IMG/VR virus record: IMGVR_UViG_2778261277_000005
Source of the DNA: a virus
Lineage: Duplodnaviria > Heunggongvirae > Uroviricota > Caudoviricetes
Direction: 5' to 3' (one strand)
Length of the DNA stretch: 17,171 bases
Shown: positions 502-17,171 of the stretch, piece by piece
Layout: each line of letters begins with the position of its first letter
Position numbering within the stretch: position 1 is the first letter of the stretch
The notes under the pieces: generated by a model
What the model was told of the DNA's origin: nothing
What the model saw: the letters and a program-made list of their open reading frames with translations, nothing else
The model's database searches: none
Translations under genes and position numbers: made by a program

Positions 502-573
502 GATAAGGCCCGCGAGCATTCTAAAAAGCGCCTCGACAGAACGTTCAGAAGCAGTGCGGCGGTAAAGAAAAGA

Positions 574-2286
574 ATGAGTCCACGTCGTAACGACAATAAT
601 GTCCATGATAAGACGTTCAGGGATGGCTCGTTCCTTAAAATTGGTTGGCCCTCGGTCAACATTATGTCGTCGTCGGATTACCGGTTTGTCGCCTTAACCG
701 ATTACGACCGTTTTCCGGAGAATATCGACAGCGAGGGTGATGGTTTCTCCCTGGCCTCAAAACGTACCACCACATTTATGTCCGCCGGGATGACTCTGGT
801 GGAGAGCTCGCCGGGACGTGACATCTGCGACAGCAAATGGCGACGTAAGTCGCCTCATGAAGCGCCACCGACGACTGGTATTCTTTCCCTTTACAATCGT
901 GGTGACCGCCGCCGCTGGTACTGGCCATGTCCGCACTGCGGTGAATATTTTCAGCCAGCTATGGATGCCATGACCGGCTACCGTAATGAACCGGATCCCT
1001 TTAAAGCCAGTGAGGCGGCGTATCTACTTTGCCCGCACTGCAGCGGCATTATCACTGCGGAGAAAAAGCGTGAGCTCAATAGTGCAGGAGTCTGGTTACG
1101 TGAAGGTCAGGTCATTGATCGTAACGGCAACGTTTCCGGTGAACCGCGCCGCTCCCGTATCGCCAGTTTCTGGATGGAAGGGCCAGTTGCTGCGTATCAG
1201 ACCTGGGCGCAACTGGTTTACAAATTACTGACTGCAGAACAGGAGTATGAAGCGACAGGAAGCGAAGAAACACTCAGGGCGGTTATCAACACCGACTGGG
1301 GATTACCTTATCTTCCTCGTGCCAGCATGGAGCAACGAAAAAGTGAACTGCTTGAGCAGCGGGCAGAGCCAGTTCCTTCCCGCAGTGTTCCGGATGGCGT
1401 TAATTTCCTTGTGGCGACAGTGGATGTGCAGGCGGGACGTCATCGCCGTTTTGTGGTTCAGGTAACGGGCTATGGCAGCCGTGGCGAACGCTGGATTATT
1501 GATCGTTACAACATCACGCAGTCATTGCGCAGTGACTGCGACGGGGAGAGCCAGCGAATTGATCCGGCCAGCTATCCGGAAGACTGGGATGTCCTGCTGA
1601 CGGATGTTTTTCATAAAAGCTGGCCGCTGGCCTCCGATCCTTCTCAACAAATGCGACTGATGGCAATGGCGGTGGATTCCGGCGGTGAAGACGGGGTCAC
1701 TGATAATGCCTATAAATTCTGGCGTCGTTGCCGTCGTGATGGCCTTGGTAAACGTATTTACCTGTTTAAGGGCGACAGCATCCGGCGCGCAAAACTGATC
1801 AGCCGTACATTCCCTGATAACACCGGACGAACGGGCCGCCGGGCGCAGGCCGCAGGTGATGTGCCGCTCTGGCTTCTTCAGACGGATGCCCTGAAAGACC
1901 GGGTGAATAACGCGTTATGGCGTGACTCGCCAGGTCCAGGCTATGTGCATTTCCCTGACTGGCTGGGGAGCTGGTTTTACGACGAACTGACGTATGAAGA
2001 GCGGAGCAGTGACGGGAAATGGAGTAAGCCGGGTCGCGGTGCCAACGAAGCTTTTGACCTGATGGTGTATGCCGAGGCGCTGGTCATTCTGCATGGATAC
2101 GAAAAGATCCGCTGGCCGGATGCACCGGAGTGGGCGAGTCGGGAAACCTGGCTGGAGTGTGTCCCGGACAGTACCGAACCGTCACCCTCACCGGAGCCGG
2201 TATCCACGCCTGTTAAAAAACAAAAACGGAAGAAAACAGTAACTGACGATGTTAACCCCTGGCTGACTTCCGGAGGATGGTTATGA
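574..2286 (+). CDS. Terminase large subunit, GpA (lambda A) family, 5'-truncated: lacks the N-terminal ATPase/Walker A region
   Basis: The 570-aa ORF aligns to roughly residues 140-641 of lambda gpA by recollection (e.g. WYWPCPHCGEYF vs lambda VACPHCGEEQY; FLVATVDVQAGRHRRFVV...WIIDR vs lambda YLTAGIDSQLDRYEMRVW...WLIDR). Four-Cys motif CPHCG...CPHCSG present. The same frame is open upstream through ~502 into the IS junction, so 574 is only the first ATG. Stop overlaps the next gene start (ATGA). Confidence 0.8.
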   Translation: MSPRRNDNNVHDKTFRDGSFLKIGWPSVNIMSSSDYRFVALTDYDRFPENIDSEGDGFSLASKRTTTFMSAGMTLVESSPGRDICDSKWRRKSPHEAPPTTGILSLYNRGDRRRWYWPCPHCGEYFQPAMDAMTGYRNEPDPFKASEAAYLLCPHCSGIITAEKKRELNSAGVWLREGQVIDRNGNVSGEPRRSRIASFWMEGPVAAYQTWAQLVYKLLTAEQEYEATGSEETLRAVINTDWGLPYLPRASMEQRKSELLEQRAEPVPSRSVPDGVNFLVATVDVQAGRHRRFVVQVTGYGSRGERWIIDRYNITQSLRSDCDGESQRIDPASYPEDWDVLLTDVFHKSWPLASDPSQQMRLMAMAVDSGGEDGVTDNAYKFWRRCRRDGLGKRIYLFKGDSIRRAKLISRTFPDNTGRTGRRAQAAGDVPLWLLQTDALKDRVNNALWRDSPGPGYVHFPDWLGSWFYDELTYEERSSDGKWSKPGRGANEAFDLMVYAEALVILHGYEKIRWPDAPEWASRETWLECVPDSTEPSPSPEPVSTPVKKQKRKKTVTDDVNPWLTSGGWL

Positions 2287-2495: not shown

Positions 2496-4003
2496 TGGCA
2501 ATTCTTGATGATGTGATTGGCGTTTTTTCACCAGGATGGAAAGCGGCAAGGCTGCGTTCCCGTGCGGTGATTCAGGCTTATGAGGCCGTAAAAACGACGC
2601 GGACACACAAAGCCCGACGGGAGAACCGAACTGCCGACCAGTTAAGCCAGTACGGGGCCGTGTCGTTACGTGAGCAGGCCCGTTACCTTGATAACAACCA
2701 CGATCTGGTCATTGGTGTATTTGACAAGCTGGAAGAACGGGTGGTGGGGAAAAACGGGATTATTGTCGAGCCACATCCGGTATTACGCAATGGGGCCATT
2801 GCCCGTGATCTGGCAGCGGAGATACGCACCCGATGGAGTGAATGGTCTGTCAGTCCGGAAGTCACCGGGCAGTTTACCCGTCCGATGCTGGAACGTCTGA
2901 TGCTGCGTACCTGGCTGCGCGATGGTGAGGTGTTTGCCCAGATGGTTTCCGGGCGCATAAACAGCTTGACGCCTTCTGCCGGTGTTCATTTCTGGCTGGA
3001 GGCGCTCGAGCCGGACTTTATTCCCATGACCAGTGATGAGAGCAACAGGCTGAATCAGGGCGTGTTTGTTGATGACTGGGGGCGTCCCGAAAAATATCTG
3101 GTGTATAAAAGCCGTCCCGTATCCGGGCGGCAGATGGAAACCAAAGAAGTGGATGCAGAGCGAATGCTGCATCTTAAATTTGTTCGCCGTCTGCACCAGA
3201 TGCGCGGGACGTCTTTGTTGTCCGGTGTGCTGATCCGCCTCAGTGCTCTGAAAGAGTATGAAGATTCTGAGCTGACTGCAGCAAGGATCGCCGCTGCTCT
3301 GGGGATGTACATCCGGAAAGGCGACGGACAGAGCTATGAAACGGATGGTAATGACAGCAAGGAGAATGAACGCGAGCTTACCATTCAGCCAGGCATTATT
3401 TACGACGATCTGAAACCCGGCGAAGAAATCGGAATGGTGAAGTCGGATCGCCCCAATCCTAACCTTGAAACTTTTCGTAATGGTCAGTTGCGTGCCGTGG
3501 CTGCGGGCAGTCGTCTGAGTTTTTCCAGTACAGCGCGCAACTATAACGGCACTTACAGCGCCCAGCGTCAGGAGCTGGTTGAATCTACTGATGGCTACCT
3601 GATCCTGCAGGACTGGTTTATTGGTGCCGTCACCCGCCCGATGTACCGTGCCTGGCTGAAACAGGCTGTGGCATCCGGTGTTATCAGGCTACCCCGCGAT
3701 CTGGACCGATCTTCACTGTATACCGCGGTGTATTCCGGACCGGTGATGCCGTGGATTGACCCTGTTAAGGAGGCTGAGGCCTGGAAAATTCAGATTCGTG
3801 GTGGAGCGGCGACAGAATCAGACTGGGTACGTGCAGGTGGTCGTAATCCGGATGATGTCAAACGTCGGCGCAAGGCCGAAATTGATGAAAACCGCAAGCT
3901 GGATCTGGTATTTGATACCGATCCGGCCAGTGATAAAGGAGGCAGCAGTGCCGCAACGAAACGACAGGAGCCGCAGCACACCGACGACCAGTCCGAAGAA
4001 TAA
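2495..4003 (+). CDS. Portal protein (lambda B-type family)
   Basis: 502 aa from the ATG overlapping the W stop (TGATG); the ORF-track start at 2423 is an in-frame upstream extension that overlaps W. Size and position are typical for a portal; sequence is diverged from lambda B. Confidence 0.8.
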   Translation: MAILDDVIGVFSPGWKAARLRSRAVIQAYEAVKTTRTHKARRENRTADQLSQYGAVSLREQARYLDNNHDLVIGVFDKLEERVVGKNGIIVEPHPVLRNGAIARDLAAEIRTRWSEWSVSPEVTGQFTRPMLERLMLRTWLRDGEVFAQMVSGRINSLTPSAGVHFWLEALEPDFIPMTSDESNRLNQGVFVDDWGRPEKYLVYKSRPVSGRQMETKEVDAERMLHLKFVRRLHQMRGTSLLSGVLIRLSALKEYEDSELTAARIAAALGMYIRKGDGQSYETDGNDSKENERELTIQPGIIYDDLKPGEEIGMVKSDRPNPNLETFRNGQLRAVAAGSRLSFSSTARNYNGTYSAQRQELVESTDGYLILQDWFIGAVTRPMYRAWLKQAVASGVIRLPRDLDRSSLYTAVYSGPVMPWIDPVKEAEAWKIQIRGGAATESDWVRAGGRNPDDVKRRRKAEIDENRKLDLVFDTDPASDKGGSSAATKRQEPQHTDDQSEE

Positions 4004-4016
4004 TTCCTGGTTCAGG

Positions 4017-5975
4017 ATGCAGGCAGGTCACCAGAGTGACGCGGATATTTATATTTATGACGAGATTGGTTTCTGGGGTGTTACAGCGAAGCAGTTTATC
4101 AGTGATCTGAATGCACTGGGCGATATCACCCACATTAATCTCCATATTAATTCACCGGGTGGCGATGTCTTTGAAGGCATCGCCATTTTTAATGCACTGA
4201 AAACACATGGTGCGTCCATTACCGTTTATGTCGACGGTGTGGCGGCGTCAATGGCGTCGGTCATTGCGATGGTGGGAAACCCGGTCATTATGCCGGAAAA
4301 CTCCTTCATGATGATTCATAAACCATTTGGCTTTACGGGCGGTGATGCGGAGGACATGCGCACCTATGCCGACCTGCTCGATAAAGTTGAGGCGGTTCTG
4401 TTACCCGCTTATGCACAGAAAACCGGGAAAACCACCGATGAAATTGCTGCCATGCTGGCGGATGAGACCTGGATGTCCGGTGCCGAATGTCTGGCACAGG
4501 GATTTGCTGATCAGGTGACACCAGCCGTTAAGGCAATGGCATGTATTCAGTCAAAACGTACAGAGGAATTTAAAAAGATGCCGGAATCCATTCGAAACAT
4601 GATTACTCCGCCACGCAACAGTGCTCCACGCGTACAGGATGATGAACCTGCAGCCTCCCGGACGCCAGTGCAGGCAGCAGCACCCGTGGTGGATGAAAAC
4701 AGTATCCGTGCGCAGGTACTGGCAGAGCAAAAAGCGCGTGTAAACGGTATTAATGATCTGTTTGCCATGTTTGGCGGGCGTTATCAGATGCTGCAGGCCC
4801 AGTGTCTTGCCGATCCTGAATGTTCGCTGGAGCAGGCCCGTGAAAAGCTGTTGAACGAGATGGGGCGCGAGTCCACGCCATCCAATAAAAATACCCCGGC
4901 TCATATTTATGCCGGTAACGGTAATTTTGTGGGGGACGGGATCCGCCAGGCGCTGATGGCGCGTGCCGGATTTGAAAAAACCGAACGTGATAATGTCTAC
5001 AACGGGATGACCCTGCGTGAATATGCCCGTATGTCACTAACTGAACGGGGTATTGGGGTTTCCGGTTATAACCCGATGCAGATGGTCGGTGCGGCGTTCA
5101 CACACAGTACGTCTGACTTCGGTAATATTCTGCTGGATGTTGCGAACAAAGCCATTCTGCAGGGCTGGGAAGATGCCCCTGAAACCTATGAACAGTGGAC
5201 GCGGAAAGGTCAGTTGTCTGATTTTAAAATTGCCCATCGTGTGGGTATGGGGGGCTTCAGTGCTCTGCGTCAGGTGCGTGAAGGGGCGGAATATAAATAC
5301 GTCACCACCGGAGATAAACAGGCCACTATTGCACTGGCGACCTATGGCGAGCTGTTCAGTTTCACCCGTCAGGCCATTATCAATGATGATCTGAATATGC
5401 TGACCGATGTCCCGATGAAACTGGGCCGTGCGGCGAAATCCACTATTGCCGATCTGGTTTATGCCATTCTGACGTCTAACCCGAAAATCTCCACAGATAA
5501 TGTAAGTCTGTTCGATAAAGCGAAACATGCAAACGTACTGGAGAGCGCTGCAATGGACGTGGCATCGCTGGATAAAGCCCGCCAGTTGATGCGCGTTCAG
5601 AAAGAGGGGGAGCGTCATCTGAATATTCGTCCTGCGTTCGTACTGGTACCGACGGCGATGGAGTCTGTTGCTAACCAGGTCATTCGCTCCTCAAGTGTCA
5701 AGGGGGCTGACATTAACGCCGGTATTATTAACCCGGTGAAAGATTTTGCGACCGTTATTGCAGAGCCTCGTCTTGATGATAACAGCCAGACCACCTTCTA
5801 CCTGGCTGCGTCAAAAGGCTCCGATACGATTGAAGTGGCTTATCTCAACGGTGTGGATACGCCATATATTGATCAGATGGAGGGCTTCAGTGTGGATGGC
5901 GTGACAACGAAAGTGCGTATTGACGCCGGTGTCGCGCCAGTTGATCACCGCGGTCTGGTGAAATGTACGGCGTAA
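4017..5975 (+). CDS. Fused prohead protease (ClpP/S14-like) - linker/scaffold - major capsid protein (HK97 fold)
   Basis: The N-terminal ~200 aa carry a ClpP-like serine protease signature (HINSPGGDVFEGIAIF..., GVAASMASVI..., MMIHKP); a Pro/Ala/Gln-rich linker follows; the C-terminal ~380 aa resemble major capsid proteins. Start chosen at the first ATG after the portal stop (MQAGHQSDADIYIYDE...); the ORF-track start at 3756 overlaps the portal. Confidence 0.8.
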   Translation: MQAGHQSDADIYIYDEIGFWGVTAKQFISDLNALGDITHINLHINSPGGDVFEGIAIFNALKTHGASITVYVDGVAASMASVIAMVGNPVIMPENSFMMIHKPFGFTGGDAEDMRTYADLLDKVEAVLLPAYAQKTGKTTDEIAAMLADETWMSGAECLAQGFADQVTPAVKAMACIQSKRTEEFKKMPESIRNMITPPRNSAPRVQDDEPAASRTPVQAAAPVVDENSIRAQVLAEQKARVNGINDLFAMFGGRYQMLQAQCLADPECSLEQAREKLLNEMGRESTPSNKNTPAHIYAGNGNFVGDGIRQALMARAGFEKTERDNVYNGMTLREYARMSLTERGIGVSGYNPMQMVGAAFTHSTSDFGNILLDVANKAILQGWEDAPETYEQWTRKGQLSDFKIAHRVGMGGFSALRQVREGAEYKYVTTGDKQATIALATYGELFSFTRQAIINDDLNMLTDVPMKLGRAAKSTIADLVYAILTSNPKISTDNVSLFDKAKHANVLESAAMDVASLDKARQLMRVQKEGERHLNIRPAFVLVPTAMESVANQVIRSSSVKGADINAGIINPVKDFATVIAEPRLDDNSQTTFYLAASKGSDTIEVAYLNGVDTPYIDQMEGFSVDGVTTKVRIDAGVAPVDHRGLVKCTA

Positions 5976-8456: not shown

Positions 8457-8843
8457 ATGTTTCTGAAACAGGGCACGTTTAATTATGAAAAGCAGTCCGT
8501 GGTGCTCAGTGAGCTGTCCGGGCTGCAGAGAATTGAATATCTGGCGTTTGTTCAGCAGCGAACGGCAAAGTTTGATGCCGAAGAGGGAGAACTGCCGGAG
8601 GCTGAACGACAGATTGCTTTTCTGCGGATGGGGATGGATATCAATGCCTGGCTGGTTTCCCGCTCACTGTGGAATGCGGAACAGTCTCAGGATGTTGAGA
8701 CGCTTTGCGCATCCGTTATTACAACATGGTCGTATGATGCCCTGGGAGCGGGGGCGGAGATGGTTCTGTCGCTGAGCGGTATGGGAGTCATTGAGAATGC
8801 CGGGGATTTGGAGCATGAGGTGCTGACGCCGGAAAAGTCCTGA
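8457..8843 (+). CDS. G: Tail assembly chaperone G
   Basis: Starts MFLKQGTF... (lambda G starts MFLKTESF...), with GGAG upstream; 128 aa; located immediately upstream of the tape measure gene. Confidence 0.85.
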   Translation: MFLKQGTFNYEKQSVVLSELSGLQRIEYLAFVQQRTAKFDAEEGELPEAERQIAFLRMGMDINAWLVSRSLWNAEQSQDVETLCASVITTWSYDALGAGAEMVLSLSGMGVIENAGDLEHEVLTPEKS

Positions 8844-9181
8844 CGCGGGAAATGCAGTTTGTCATGCGGCTTGCCCGGGAGTTCCGGCGGGCAGACTGGC
8901 GGCGGATGCTGTCGGAAATGTCGGCCACTGAGCTTGGTGAGTGGGGCGATTATTTCCGGATGCAGAGCTTCAGTGATGTGTGGATGGATGCGCAGTTTGC
9001 CTCGCTGAAGGCATTGATCGTGAGAATGGTGTCCGGTAGCAGTGATGCTGCGGTGGCTGATTTCAGCCTTTTACCGGAAGAGAACGGGATACCGGAGCGA
9101 ACGGACGAAGAACTGATGCATCTTGGGGAAGGTATTTCCGGAGGTGTGCGTTATGGACCAGATAGCCAACCTGGTCATTGA
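8457..9181 (+). CDS. T: Tail assembly chaperone G-T fusion, produced by programmed -1 ribosomal frameshift near the 3' end of G
   Basis: The 8852..9181 ORF is in the -1 frame relative to G, and that frame is stop-free across the G stop codon. This mirrors the conserved G/GT arrangement of lambda-like tail modules. Candidate slip region is CCGGAAAAG, ~8829-8837. Confidence 0.7.
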
Positions 9182-13260: not shown

Positions 13261-14004
13261 ATGACAGAGACAGAATCAGCGATTCTGGCGCACGCCCGGC
13301 GATGTGCGCCAGCGGAGTCGTGCGGCGTCGTGGTGAGAACACCGGAGGGGGAAAGATATTTTCCCTGCGTGAATATATCCGGTGAGCCGGAGGAGTATTT
13401 CCGGATGTCGCCGGAGGACTGGCTGAGTGCAGAAATGCAGGGAGAGATTGTGGCGCTGGTCCACAGCCACCCCGGTGGTCTGCCCTGGCTGAGTGAGGCC
13501 GACCGGCGGCTGCAGGTGCAGAGTGATTTGCCGTGGTGGCTGGTCTGCCGGGGGGCGATTCATAAATTCCGCTGTGTGCCGCATCTCACCGGGCGGCGCT
13601 TTGAGCACGGGGTGACGGACTGTTACACGCTGTTCCGGGACGCTTACCATCTGGCGGGAATTGAGATGCCGGATTTTCATCGCGGGGATGACTGGTGGCG
13701 TCACGGTCAGAATCTCTATCTGGATAATCTGGAGGCCACAGGGCTGTATCAGGTGCCGTTGTCATCAGCACAACCGGGCGATGTGCTGCTGTGCTGCTTT
13801 GGTTCATCGGTGCCGAATCATGCCGCCATTTACTGTGGTGACGGCGAGCTGCTGCACCATATTCCTGAACAACTGAGCAAACGAGAGAGGTATACCGACA
13901 AATGGCAGCGACGCACACACTCCCTCTGGCGTCACCGGGCATGGCGCGCATCTGCCTTTACGGGGATTTACAACGATTTGGCCGCCGCATCGATCTGCGT
14001 GTGA
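13261..14004 (+). CDS. K: Tail tip assembly protein K (JAB/MPN metalloprotease-like plus NlpC/P60-like domains)
   Basis: ATG just after the L stop (MTETESAIL...). JAMM-like motif 'VHSHPGG...SEAD'; downstream Cys/His-containing region (DCYTLF..., NHAAIYCG) typical of the NlpC/P60 domain of lambda K. The 3' end overlaps I in another frame, as in lambda. Confidence 0.85.
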   Translation: MTETESAILAHARRCAPAESCGVVVRTPEGERYFPCVNISGEPEEYFRMSPEDWLSAEMQGEIVALVHSHPGGLPWLSEADRRLQVQSDLPWWLVCRGAIHKFRCVPHLTGRRFEHGVTDCYTLFRDAYHLAGIEMPDFHRGDDWWRHGQNLYLDNLEATGLYQVPLSSAQPGDVLLCCFGSSVPNHAAIYCGDGELLHHIPEQLSKRERYTDKWQRRTHSLWRHRAWRASAFTGIYNDLAAASICV

Positions 14005-14426
14005 AAACGGGGGCCGAAGCCATCCGGGCGCTGGCCATGCAGATCCCGGCGTTTCGTCAGAAGCTGAGCGACGGCTGGTATCAGGTACGCATTGCCGGGC
14101 GTGATACAGGTGAAACGGAATTATCAGCCCGTCTTAATGAACCGCTGGCAAATGGTGCTGTGATCCATATCGTGCCGCGTCTGGCGGGAGCCAAAAGTGG
14201 CGGTGTGTTTCAGGCTGTGCTGGGGGCGGCTGTTATGGCGGTTGCTATATGGATGCCGGGGGTAGGAATTATGGCGAGTAATCTGCTGTTTTCTCTCGGT
14301 GCCAGTATGACGCTTGGCGGTGTTGCACAGATGCTGGCCCCTAAACCCAAAACCCCCCGCACACAGACAACGGATAACGGCAAACAGAACACCTATTTTT
14401 CTTCACTGGATAACATGGTTGCCTAG
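13902..14426 (+). CDS. I: Tail tip assembly protein I, ending at an in-frame TAG; the C-terminal 38 codons continue in frame to 14543
   Basis: MAATHTLPLASPGMARICLYGDLQRFGRRIDLRVKTGAEAIRALA... is essentially the lambda I N-terminus. The ORF ends ...YFSSLDNMVA-TAG, and the same frame continues GNVLPVLYGEMRVGSRVVSQEISTADEGDGGQVVVIGR-TGA, which matches the lambda I C-terminus, where Q (CAG) occupies the TAG position. Confidence 0.85.
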   Translation: MAATHTLPLASPGMARICLYGDLQRFGRRIDLRVKTGAEAIRALAMQIPAFRQKLSDGWYQVRIAGRDTGETELSARLNEPLANGAVIHIVPRLAGAKSGGVFQAVLGAAVMAVAIWMPGVGIMASNLLFSLGASMTLGGVAQMLAPKPKTPRTQTTDNGKQNTYFSSLDNMVA

Positions 14427-14561
14427 GGCAATGTTCTGCCTGTTCTGTACGGTGAAATGCGCGTGGGGTCACGCGTGGTTTCTCAGGAGATCAGCACGGC
14501 AGACGAAGGGGATGGTGGTCAGGTTGTGGTGATTGGTCGCTGATGCAAAATGTTTTATGTG

Positions 14562-14585
14562 AAACCGCCTGCGGGCGGTTTTGTC
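14562..14585 (+). terminator. Hairpin plus T-rich tract between I and J (possible attenuator or RNA structure)
   Basis: AACCGCC-TGCG-GGCGGTT stem-loop followed by TTGTCGTTT, ~20 nt upstream of the J RBS. Confidence 0.35.
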
Positions 14586-14603
14586 GTTTATGGAGCGTGA
14601 GGA

Positions 14604-17171
14604 ATGGGTAAAGGAAGCAGTAAGGGGCATACCCCGCGCGAAGCGAAGGACAACCTGAAGTCCACGCAGTTGCTGAGTGTGATTGATGCCATCAGTGAAG
14701 GGCCGATTGAAGGTCCGGTGGATGGATTAAAAAGCGTGCTGCTGAACAGTACGCCGGTGCTGGACAGTGATGGGAATACCAACATCGCCGGTGTCACGGT
14801 GGTGTTCCGGGCTGGTGAGCAGGAGCAGACTCCGCCGGAGGGATTTGAATCCTCCGGCTCCGAGACGGTGTTGGGTACGGAAGTGAAATACGACACGCCG
14901 ATCACCCGCGCCATCACGTCGGCAAACATCGACCGACTGCGCTTTACCTTCGGTGTGCAGGCACTGGTGGAAACCACCTCAAAGGGGGACCGGAATCCGT
15001 CGGAAGTTCGCCTGCTGGTTCAGATACAGCGTAATGGTGGCTGGGTGACGGAAAAAGACATCACCATTAAGGGCAAAACCACCTCGCAGTATCTGGCCTC
15101 GGTGGTGGTGGATAACCTGCCGCCGCGCCCGTTTAATATCCGGATGCGCAGAATGACGCCGGACAGCACCACAGACCAGCTGCAGAACAAAACGCTCTGG
15201 TCGTCATACACCGAAATCATCGATGTGAAACAGTGCTACCCGAACACGGCACTGGTCGGCGTGCAGGTGGACTCGGAACAGTTCGGCAGCCAGCAGGTGA
15301 GCCGTAATTATCATCTTCGCGGGCGCATTCTGCAGGTGCCGTCGAACTATAACCCGCAGACGCGGCAATACAGCGGTATCTGGGACGGAACGTTTAAGCC
15401 AGCATACAGCAACAACATGGCCTGGTGTCTGTGGGATATGCTGACCCATCCGCGCTACGGCATGGGGAAGCGTCTCGGTGCGGCGGATGTGGACAAATGG
15501 GCGCTGTATGTCATCGGCCAGAATTGCGACCAGTCGGTGCCGGATGGCTTTGGTGGCACGGAGCCGCGCATCACCTGTAATGCCTGGCTGATCACACAGC
15601 GCAAGGCGTGGGATGTTCTCAGTGATTTCTGCTCGGCGATGCGCTGTATGCCGGTATGGAACGGGCAGACGCTGACGTTCGTGCAGGACCGACCGTCGGA
15701 TAAGGTGTGGACCTATAACCGCAGTAATGTGGTGATGCCGGATGATGGCGCGCCGTTCCGCTACAGCTTCAGTGCCCTGAAGGACCGTCATAATGCCGTT
15801 GAGGTGAACTGGATTGACCCGGATAACGGCTGGGAGACGGCGACAGAGCTTGTGGAGGACACGCAGGCCATTGCCCGTTACGGTCGTAACGTCACGAAGA
15901 TGGATGCCTTTGGCTGTACCAGCCGGGGGCAGGCACACCGCGCCGGGCTGTGGCTGATTAAAACGGAACTGCTGGAAACGCAGACCGTGGACTTCAGCGT
16001 GGGTGCCGAAGGGCTTCGCCATGTACCAGGTGATGTCATTGAAATCTGTGATGATGACTATGCGGGGATCAGCACCGGCGGGCGCGTGCTGGCGGTGAAC
16101 AGCCAGACCCGGACGCTGACGCTCGACCGTGAAATCACGCTGCCATCCTCCGGTACCACGCTGATAAGCCTGGTTGACGGAAGTGGCAATCCGGTCAGCG
16201 TGGAGGTCCAGTCCGTCACCGACGGCGTGAAGGTAAAAGTGAGCCGTGTTCCTGACGGCGTTGCCGGATACAGCGTGTGGGGGCTGAAGCTGCCGACGCT
16301 GCGCCAGCGCCTGTTCCGCTGCGTGAGTATCCGTGAGAACGACGACGGCACGTATGCCATCACCGCCGTGCAGCATGTACCGGAAAAAGAAGCCATCGTG
16401 GATAACGGGGCGCACTTTGACGGCGACCAGAGCGGCACGGTGAATGGTGTCACGCCGCCAGCAGTGCAGCACCTGACTGCCGAAGTCACCGCAGACAGCG
16501 GGGAATATCAGGTGCTGGCGCGCTGGGACACGCCGAAGGTGGTGAAGGGGGTGAGCTTTATGCTTCGCCTGACCGTAACAGCGGACGACGGCAGTGAGCG
16601 GCTGGTCAGCACGGCCCGGACGACAGAAACCACATACCGCTTCAGGCAGCTGGCGCTGGGGCGTTACACGCTGACGGTCCGGGCGGTAAATGCGTGGGGA
16701 CAGCAGGGCGATCCGGCATCGGTATCGTTCCGGATTGCCGCACCGGCAGCGCCGTCGCAGATTGAGCTGACACCCGGGTATTTTCAGATAACCGCCACGC
16801 CGCATCTTGCGGTTTATGATCCGACGGTACAGTTTGAGTTCTGGTTCTCGGAAAAGCGGATTGCGGATATCAGGCAGGTTGAAACCAGCGCGCGTTATCT
16901 TGGTACGGCGCTGTACTGGATAGCCGCCAGTATCAATATCAAACCGGGCCATGATTATTATTTTTACGTTCGCAGTGTGAATACCGTTGGCAAATCGGCA
17001 TTCGTGGAGGCTGTTGGTCGGCCGAGTGATGATGCTTCCGGCTATCTGGATTTTTTCAAAGGCGAGATAGGGAAAAGCCATCTGGCTCAGGAGTTGTGGA
17101 CGCAGATTGATAACGGTCAGCTTGCGCCTGACCTGGCTGAAATCAGGACGTCCATTACGGATGTCAGCAAT
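14604..17171 (+). CDS. J: Tail tip / host specificity protein J, N-terminal ~856 codons; 3' end beyond the window
   Basis: ATG at ~14604 preceded by GGAGCGTGAGG; the frame is open to the last base of the window (exactly 856 codons), which explains its absence from the ORF track (no stop in window). [54 protein letters not shown]... matches the lambda J N-terminus essentially residue for residue by recollection. Confidence 0.92.

Follow-up and report, generated by a model that had tools for sequence, protein, structure and literature searches.

The stretch of DNA analyzed here (the window) corresponds in full to contig NLFZ01000054.1 (17,171 nt) of the draft assembly GCA_002225765.1, and it belongs to a Qin/lambda-like prophage of E. 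coli. The contig ends at an IS on the left and inside the tail gene J on the right, a pattern typical of short-read drafts. From position 502 to position 17171, it consists of a lambda-like head and tail block with terL, the portal gene, a protease-capsid fusion gene, Z, U, V, G, T, H, M, L, K, I, and the 5' part of J. The sibling genomes have this block inside a Qin-like prophage, adjoining cspI, ydfR, rrrQ, rzpQ, ynfN, gnsB, and tfaQ, a neighborhood like that of cryptic or defective lambdoid prophages such as Qin. Over 16,670 nt, the window aligns without gaps to the intact prophage of E. coli STEC1587, with five mismatches: one yields A334V in terL, one is synonymous in the protease-capsid gene, one creates an amber codon in I, and two form an adjacent double change at codon 780 of J (R to K).

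The head genes at 3948-5975 are not lambda-like and comprise a single gene for a fusion of a ClpP-like prohead protease with the major capsid protein (675 aa) and, downstream of it, a DUF2190 "cement" gene. Their combination with a lambda-like Z-U-V-G-T-H-M-L-K-I-J tail module makes the prophage a head/tail mosaic. The lambda-type slippery heptamer GGGAAAG is absent from the overlap of the G and T homologs (8457-9181) and occurs four times elsewhere in the window; a G-T frameshift, if it operates here, thus needs a different slip site.

The first-pass annotation reported that the terminase was disrupted, and this is borne out by the left end of the contig, where an IS66-family element interrupts terL, with the junction at 501/502. 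The end of the element occupies positions 1-501 on the minus strand, the strand that also carries its TnpA (HTH) reading frame, and it shares 99.8% identity with the ISEc23 copy of E. coli PCN061. What remains of the large terminase gene (502-2286, plus strand) lacks its first 315 nt (105 codons), in addition to bearing the A334V substitution. Of note, strain PCN061 has the same IS type in terL, located about 165 nt further into the gene. Because the two elements sit at different positions, the insertion in PCN061 is a separate event from that in the window, and the terL gene of this prophage family has been struck by IS66-type elements at least twice.

Gene I lies between K and J, an order shared with the sibling prophages and with lambda. 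The K homolog upstream (C40 peptidase; 13261-14004, plus strand) is intact and overlaps the start of I, whereas the J homolog downstream (central tail fiber/hub; 14604-17171, plus strand; PF24801, FNIII-A_GpJ) is represented by its N-terminal 856 codons and is still open at the contig end. The open reading frame of I (13902-14426, plus strand) comprises 174 codons when counted from the ATG at 13902, or 161 when counting begins at the in-frame ATG 13941, where the CDS of relatives is annotated to start. Direct translation gives ...NTYFSSLDNMVA up to a TAG at 14424-14426, confirming the earlier statement that the gene stops after ...SLDNMVA; the window thus holds no uninterrupted full-length frame of I. 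The amber triplet is codon 175 (codon 162 from the annotated start) and is equivalent to Q185 of lambda gpI. Beyond it, the same frame continues at 14427-14543 with 38 codons, GNVLPVLYGEMRVGSRVVSQEISTADEGDGGQVVVIGR, and a TGA at 14541-14543; this segment is intact at the DNA level and corresponds to lambda residues 186-223.

The affiliation of the gene is clear. Residues 14-97 match the Pfam family PF06805 (Lambda_tail_I) with an E value of 5e-24 and 84.9 bits against a cutoff of 23.8, and the 213-aa product obtained by placing Q at the stop aligns end to end (1-213 to 1-223) with the lambda gpI chain 8iyk_I, with an E value of 9e-108. This alignment confirms that the 38 orphaned codons are the conserved C terminus of lambda I. 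The codon found in lambda at this place is CAG, in the context GCC CAG GGC (the C being lambda coordinate 15325), and the closest relatives among 5,426 complete E. coli genomes are identical to the window over the 719-nt I region (99.9%) save for a C instead of the T at 14424. Furthermore, relatives have CAG at essentially all other copies. The Gln codon proposed for the ancestral gene is therefore the correct one, and the single C-to-T nonsense change is one of the five differences that separate the whole block from its intact sibling, in keeping with a recent inactivation. We conclude that the locus is a pseudogene of the Lambda_tail_I family, produced by a one-base nonsense change in a well-conserved gene, and not a chance similarity.

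We also considered whether the short frame belongs to a naturally short I family, which we reject. Homolog searches returned gene I products of 200-215 aa, and the shorter entries were contig-end partials, carriers of the same amber, or frameshifted copies. A few sequences do, formally, end at the same codon; they represent the same rare mutation, with the 38 codons still intact behind the stop, and no shorter family emerged from the comparison. The 174-aa truncated product starting at ATG 13902 is on record in databases; no record was found of the 161-aa form starting at the annotated ATG. Re-initiation at the in-frame ATG 14457, which would yield the C-terminal 27 residues, was likewise rejected, as this ATG lacks a convincing ribosome-binding site and a separate peptide would be unable to tether the plug to gpJ.

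The structure of the lambda tail tip gives an indication of what the truncation would cost. By cryo-electron microscopy, three copies of gpI are found inside the tip cone (PMC11101478). Each consists of an unresolved N-terminal domain and two hydrophobic helices followed by residues 159-175, which form a plug closing the tube, and the C-terminal beta-strands and loops then thread the gaps between the gpJ hub domains (PMC11101478, PMC10721106). The intact I product of the window type shares with lambda gpI (PF06805; PDB 8IYK/8IYL/8K35/8XCG) the N-terminal domain, hydrophobic helices, plug, and C-terminal strands; it differs in length, at 213 aa versus 223 aa, because its central hydrophobic segment is 10 residues shorter. 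Unlike lambda gpI, the I gene of the window encodes only the residues equivalent to 1-184. The truncated product thus retains the Lambda_tail_I domain at its N terminus along with the hydrophobic helices and the plug segment, and the amber deletes the equivalent of lambda gpI 185-223, most of the gpJ anchor. By analogy with lambda, the binding partner of the lost C terminus should be the product of the adjacent J gene. With the strands that lace through gpJ gone, tail-tip assembly should fail: we infer that the truncated protein would not be held in the gpJ/gpL cone and would be nonfunctional. Such a defect agrees with that of classical amber mutants in gene I of lambda, which are tail-defective.

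The position of the mutated base is informative. An intact I gene of the window type contains exactly one CCWGG site, a CCAGG at gene nucleotides 522-526 that spans Ala174-Gln175-Gly176 (GCC CAG GGC in the siblings) and whose inner C, nucleotide 523, is the first base of codon 175. In the window, the mutated remnant of this Dcm site is a CTAGG at 14423-14427, the only CTAGG of the entire contig, in which T 14424 takes the place of the inner C, the target of Dcm methylation. The conversion of CCAGG to CTAGG is a C-to-T change (a G:C to A:T transition), so that both the sequence context and the substitution are those of a Dcm hotspot, and it is one of 16 possible transition-to-stop changes in gene I. 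The first-pass annotation did not note that the mutated base is the C targeted by Dcm, a position that would account for both the mutation and its recurrence, described below.

The dcm gene is present in most E. coli strains, and the work of M. Lieb on lambda cI am6 and the very-short-patch repair system reportedly involved the same chemistry. The closest precedent is that of the dominant lacI amber hotspots (Coulondre et al. 1978), where, according to the review in PMC12606429, the second C of CCAGG undergoes a G:C to A:T change. As in gene I, the lacI hotspots of Coulondre, Miller, Farabaugh & Gilbert (1978) result from the same transition, convert an in-frame CAG into TAG, and recur in preference to other nonsense sites. 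The two cases differ in that the lacI mutants formed a selected laboratory collection, whereas the gene I mutations occur in the prophages of natural isolates, across diverged alleles of E. coli and Shigella.

Based on this precedent, we suggest the following sequence of events. The inner C of CCAGG in gene I would have been 5-methylated by Dcm, and the resulting 5-methylcytosine would have been deaminated to thymine and missed by very-short-patch repair. Once fixed as CTAGG, the site would read TAG (amber) in place of CAG (Gln) and translation would end 38 residues early. The truncated product would retain a ubiquitin-like N-terminal domain, the hydrophobic helices, and the plug and would lack the C-terminal beta-strands that, in the lambda virion, join gpI to the gpJ hub by beta-sheet augmentation. 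Since terL was already broken, the I mutation is most simply viewed as neutral decay of an already defective prophage. Methylation and deamination, as the chemical cause, are suggested by the sequence context, and an ordinary replication error at this base would leave the same result in any one case. Taken as a whole, we regard it as probable that the amber is a real and very recent nonsense mutation of gene I, brought about by deamination at the Dcm site in the course of the ordinary decay of a defective prophage. IS insertion combined with point mutation is a decay route shared by Qin-like prophages; in contrast to Qin of K-12, the prophage of the window retains the entire lambda-like head/tail block, and its lesions are very recent.

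Because the mutated base lies in a Dcm motif, whether the T is real deserves attention. The change could be a sequencing or assembly artefact, with CAG in the genome and the T being a miscall, for example, a methylation-related consensus error at the Dcm motif or the product of a collapsed repeat. The difference is a single base, and consensus errors in older nanopore assemblies fall predominantly at Dcm motifs (PMC6591954). However, the window, which breaks at repeats (at the IS and inside J), looks like a short-read contig, and just 1 of its 45 original CCWGG sites differs from the sibling, the other four single-nucleotide differences being off Dcm sites. Moreover, a second assembly, GCA_002475455.1, contains a 1,297-nt contig (L007) that carries the TAG, is 100% identical to the window, and encodes the exact 174-aa product, making a sequencing error unlikely. 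The window contig and the L007 contig are each reported in two samples, and Logan assemblies from other runs, as well as IMG isolate genomes, also contain this TAG. An artefact is thus very unlikely. Accordingly, of the origins put forward in the first-pass annotation, prophage decay stands, whereas sequencing error loses its appeal with the finding of the allele in a second assembly and on three other haplotypes.

Two database proteins (P0010 and P0044), which are I homologs encoded on Mb-sized contigs, end in ...SLDNMVARQC(P/C)ACSVR. These ends fit a 2-nt deletion inside the same CCAGG (GCC CAG GGC to GCC CGG C..), and the resulting frameshift could be an error of the methylation-related type, a point that lends some weight to the artefact reading. 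The two sequences represent either further real lesions of the Dcm site or long-read methylation artefacts. More generally, differences associated with CC(A/T)GG may be real mutations or long-read artefacts, and a check of the reads is warranted.

The amber at this codon was found on four haplotypes. Haplotype A, used here as the reference, comprises the window and the contig L007. Haplotype B, represented by the Logan assemblies of other runs L005 and L006, which also encode the 174-aa truncated product, shows 8 silent differences from A. Haplotype C comprises the IMG/VR entries L008 and L009, whose product is that of Shigella sp. FC1544 (ODQ11604.1/OEG51487.1), and shows 39 differences from A. 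Haplotype D comprises the IMG/VR entry L011 and several NCBI E. coli proteins (KAA2057898.1, EJT4499963.1, and others); it is of the lambda-like 223-aa type, about 19% divergent from A, and has 19 differences from the I gene of lambda itself. Complete genomes contain a CAG sibling that differs at that one base for haplotype A (L003, strain STEC1587) and for haplotype B (L010, strain E275a). As A and B each have a CAG sibling differing at that base alone, they are best explained by independent events, and the occurrence of at least two independent TAG events is well supported. A CAG sibling of haplotype C was sought among complete E. coli genomes and was not found, the best match being 98.3% identical, probably because this allele comes from Shigella. 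For haplotypes C and D, for which no CAG siblings were found, the case for independence comes from sequence divergence; we consider that there were probably four independent TAG events.

The TAG could instead have arisen once and moved among lambdoid prophages by mosaic exchange. Indeed, mosaicism is extensive among lambdoid prophages, the degree to which L008/L009 match the window shifts abruptly along the tail genes, and the missing CAG siblings of C and D leave room for such an origin. Yet, apart from this base, A and B are identical to their CAG siblings over the whole gene, and the sites distinguishing A from B that lie nearest to the TAG are 22 nt upstream and 17 nt downstream. Shared descent of the TAG would hence need a conversion tract of less than 40 nt that carried that base only. 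Furthermore, the TAG falls at the one Dcm site of the gene, which independently predicts recurrence. We therefore find a single origin unlikely.

Among 205 full-length I genes of IMG/VR, in-frame stops numbered three at codon 175 plus one in a low-quality, frameshift-riddled sequence; as the TAG pattern itself served as the seed of the recurrence survey, this excess over other nonsense sites is semiquantitative, an indication and not a rate. All three IMG/VR TAG alleles lie on GCC (Dcm-competent) backgrounds, in agreement with a hotspot, with numbers too small for significance. The population frequencies of neighboring synonymous variants (CAA at the same codon at 4 loci, GCT at 81, and GGT at 17) were considered as mutation-rate controls and were rejected, these counts reflecting shared ancestry.

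Recurrence might also reflect selection, if loss of the gpI C terminus were favored by the host, for example, by silencing the production of tail tips or particles. The presence of the same lesion in at least four backgrounds would be expected under such a scenario. Nevertheless, the allele is seen very rarely and only in tip lineages, it occurs together with other inactivating lesions, and selection acting on loss of function would have no reason to favor any one of 16 nonsense sites, still less the Dcm one. Selected inactivation is, in our view, extremely unlikely.

The TAG allele is rare and is not unique to the window contig. The 59-mer centered on the TAG gave no exact match at 3,227 places in 2,239 genomes, out of 5,426 complete E. 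coli genomes searched, and 21-mer counts in IMG/VR gave 3 TAG versus at least 120 CAG. No match was returned when the GTDB species representatives were scanned for an exact 38-mer and JGI metagenomes for a 21-mer, the allele being too rare or too isolate-specific to appear there.

These counts also bear on the idea, advanced in the first-pass annotation, of a gene needing amber suppression. A gene designed to depend on suppression is unlikely, given that none of the complete E. coli genomes searched carries the TAG, and programmed stop-codon readthrough is rejected on the same counts and on the lack of conservation of the stop. In a more restricted form, the gene could be conditional or functional, with readthrough of the amber, by a supE-type Gln suppressor tRNA or through leaky termination, still yielding full-length gpI. 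The 38 downstream codons are indeed intact and in frame, and only three copies of gpI are needed per virion (PMC11101478). The original residue is also Gln, so that supE would restore the exact wild-type protein. Suppressor tRNAs of the supE type insert Gln, and amber suppressors are uncommon in natural isolates. A search of the 17-kb window for tRNA genes found none, and intact downstream codons are expected anyway for a mutation this recent. Furthermore, terL is not intact, so restoring I would not rescue the prophage, and the prophage of haplotype C has accumulated further lesions, namely, a frameshift in J and a truncated U. We therefore hold readthrough to be highly unlikely.

The classical lambda sus (amber) mutants in tail gene I reportedly come from Campbell's sus collection. 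As with those mutants, an amber in I would be conditionally lethal and suppressible by supE with the native Gln. The case of the window differs in that the amber is spontaneous in a wild prophage, that a second lesion is present in terL, and that no suppressor is known in the host.

Regarding annotation, I of the window contig should be described as a pseudogene and the prophage as defective in both terL and I. With recent nonsense mutation by Dcm-site deamination as the preferred reading, the single Dcm site of lambdoid gene I would be a natural amber hotspot, hit independently in E. coli and Shigella prophages, and the lacI-type 5-methylcytosine hotspot would be seen at work in wild genomes. 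The Dcm site of gene I would then predict where recurrent prophage-inactivating mutations fall. This is a fresh example of a long-known type of event and resolves no open question. A more speculative thought, to which we assign a very slim chance, is that the codon-185 amber (lambda numbering) marks a recurrent, reversible switch site or that the truncated gpI has a function of its own in the lysogen. In the former case, CCAGG would go to CTAGG by deamination and be restored through recombination with coresident prophages, or bypassed by suppression, and populations would exploit this switch to silence or conditionally express tail-tip assembly. In the latter case, the function would reside in a protein composed of the N-terminal domain, membrane helices, and plug and freed of the gpJ anchor.

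A few further features surround gene I. Between I and J, positions 14562-14590 form a hairpin, AAACCGCC-TGCG-GGCGGTTT, followed by a T-rich tract, at the place where relatives (phage 21, Ayreon) annotate a terminator. Folding of 14544-14604 gives -21 kcal/mol with a z score of -2.9; a simple-consensus scan of 13800-14800 for promoters and terminators returned nothing and likewise left this hairpin unflagged. On the minus strand, a 625-codon open reading frame with no Pfam match runs antisense to J (15204-17081) and is probably a by-product of J codon usage. Finally, the double substitution in J relative to STEC1587 consists of two adjacent bases, 16942-16943, which change codon 780 from AGG to AAA (R780K). 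In the Shigella-type sequences L008 and L009, similarity to the J gene of the window falls from 95% to 83%, with a shift of frame, at the same residue 780, which suggests that this region of J is a mosaic junction or an otherwise unstable spot.
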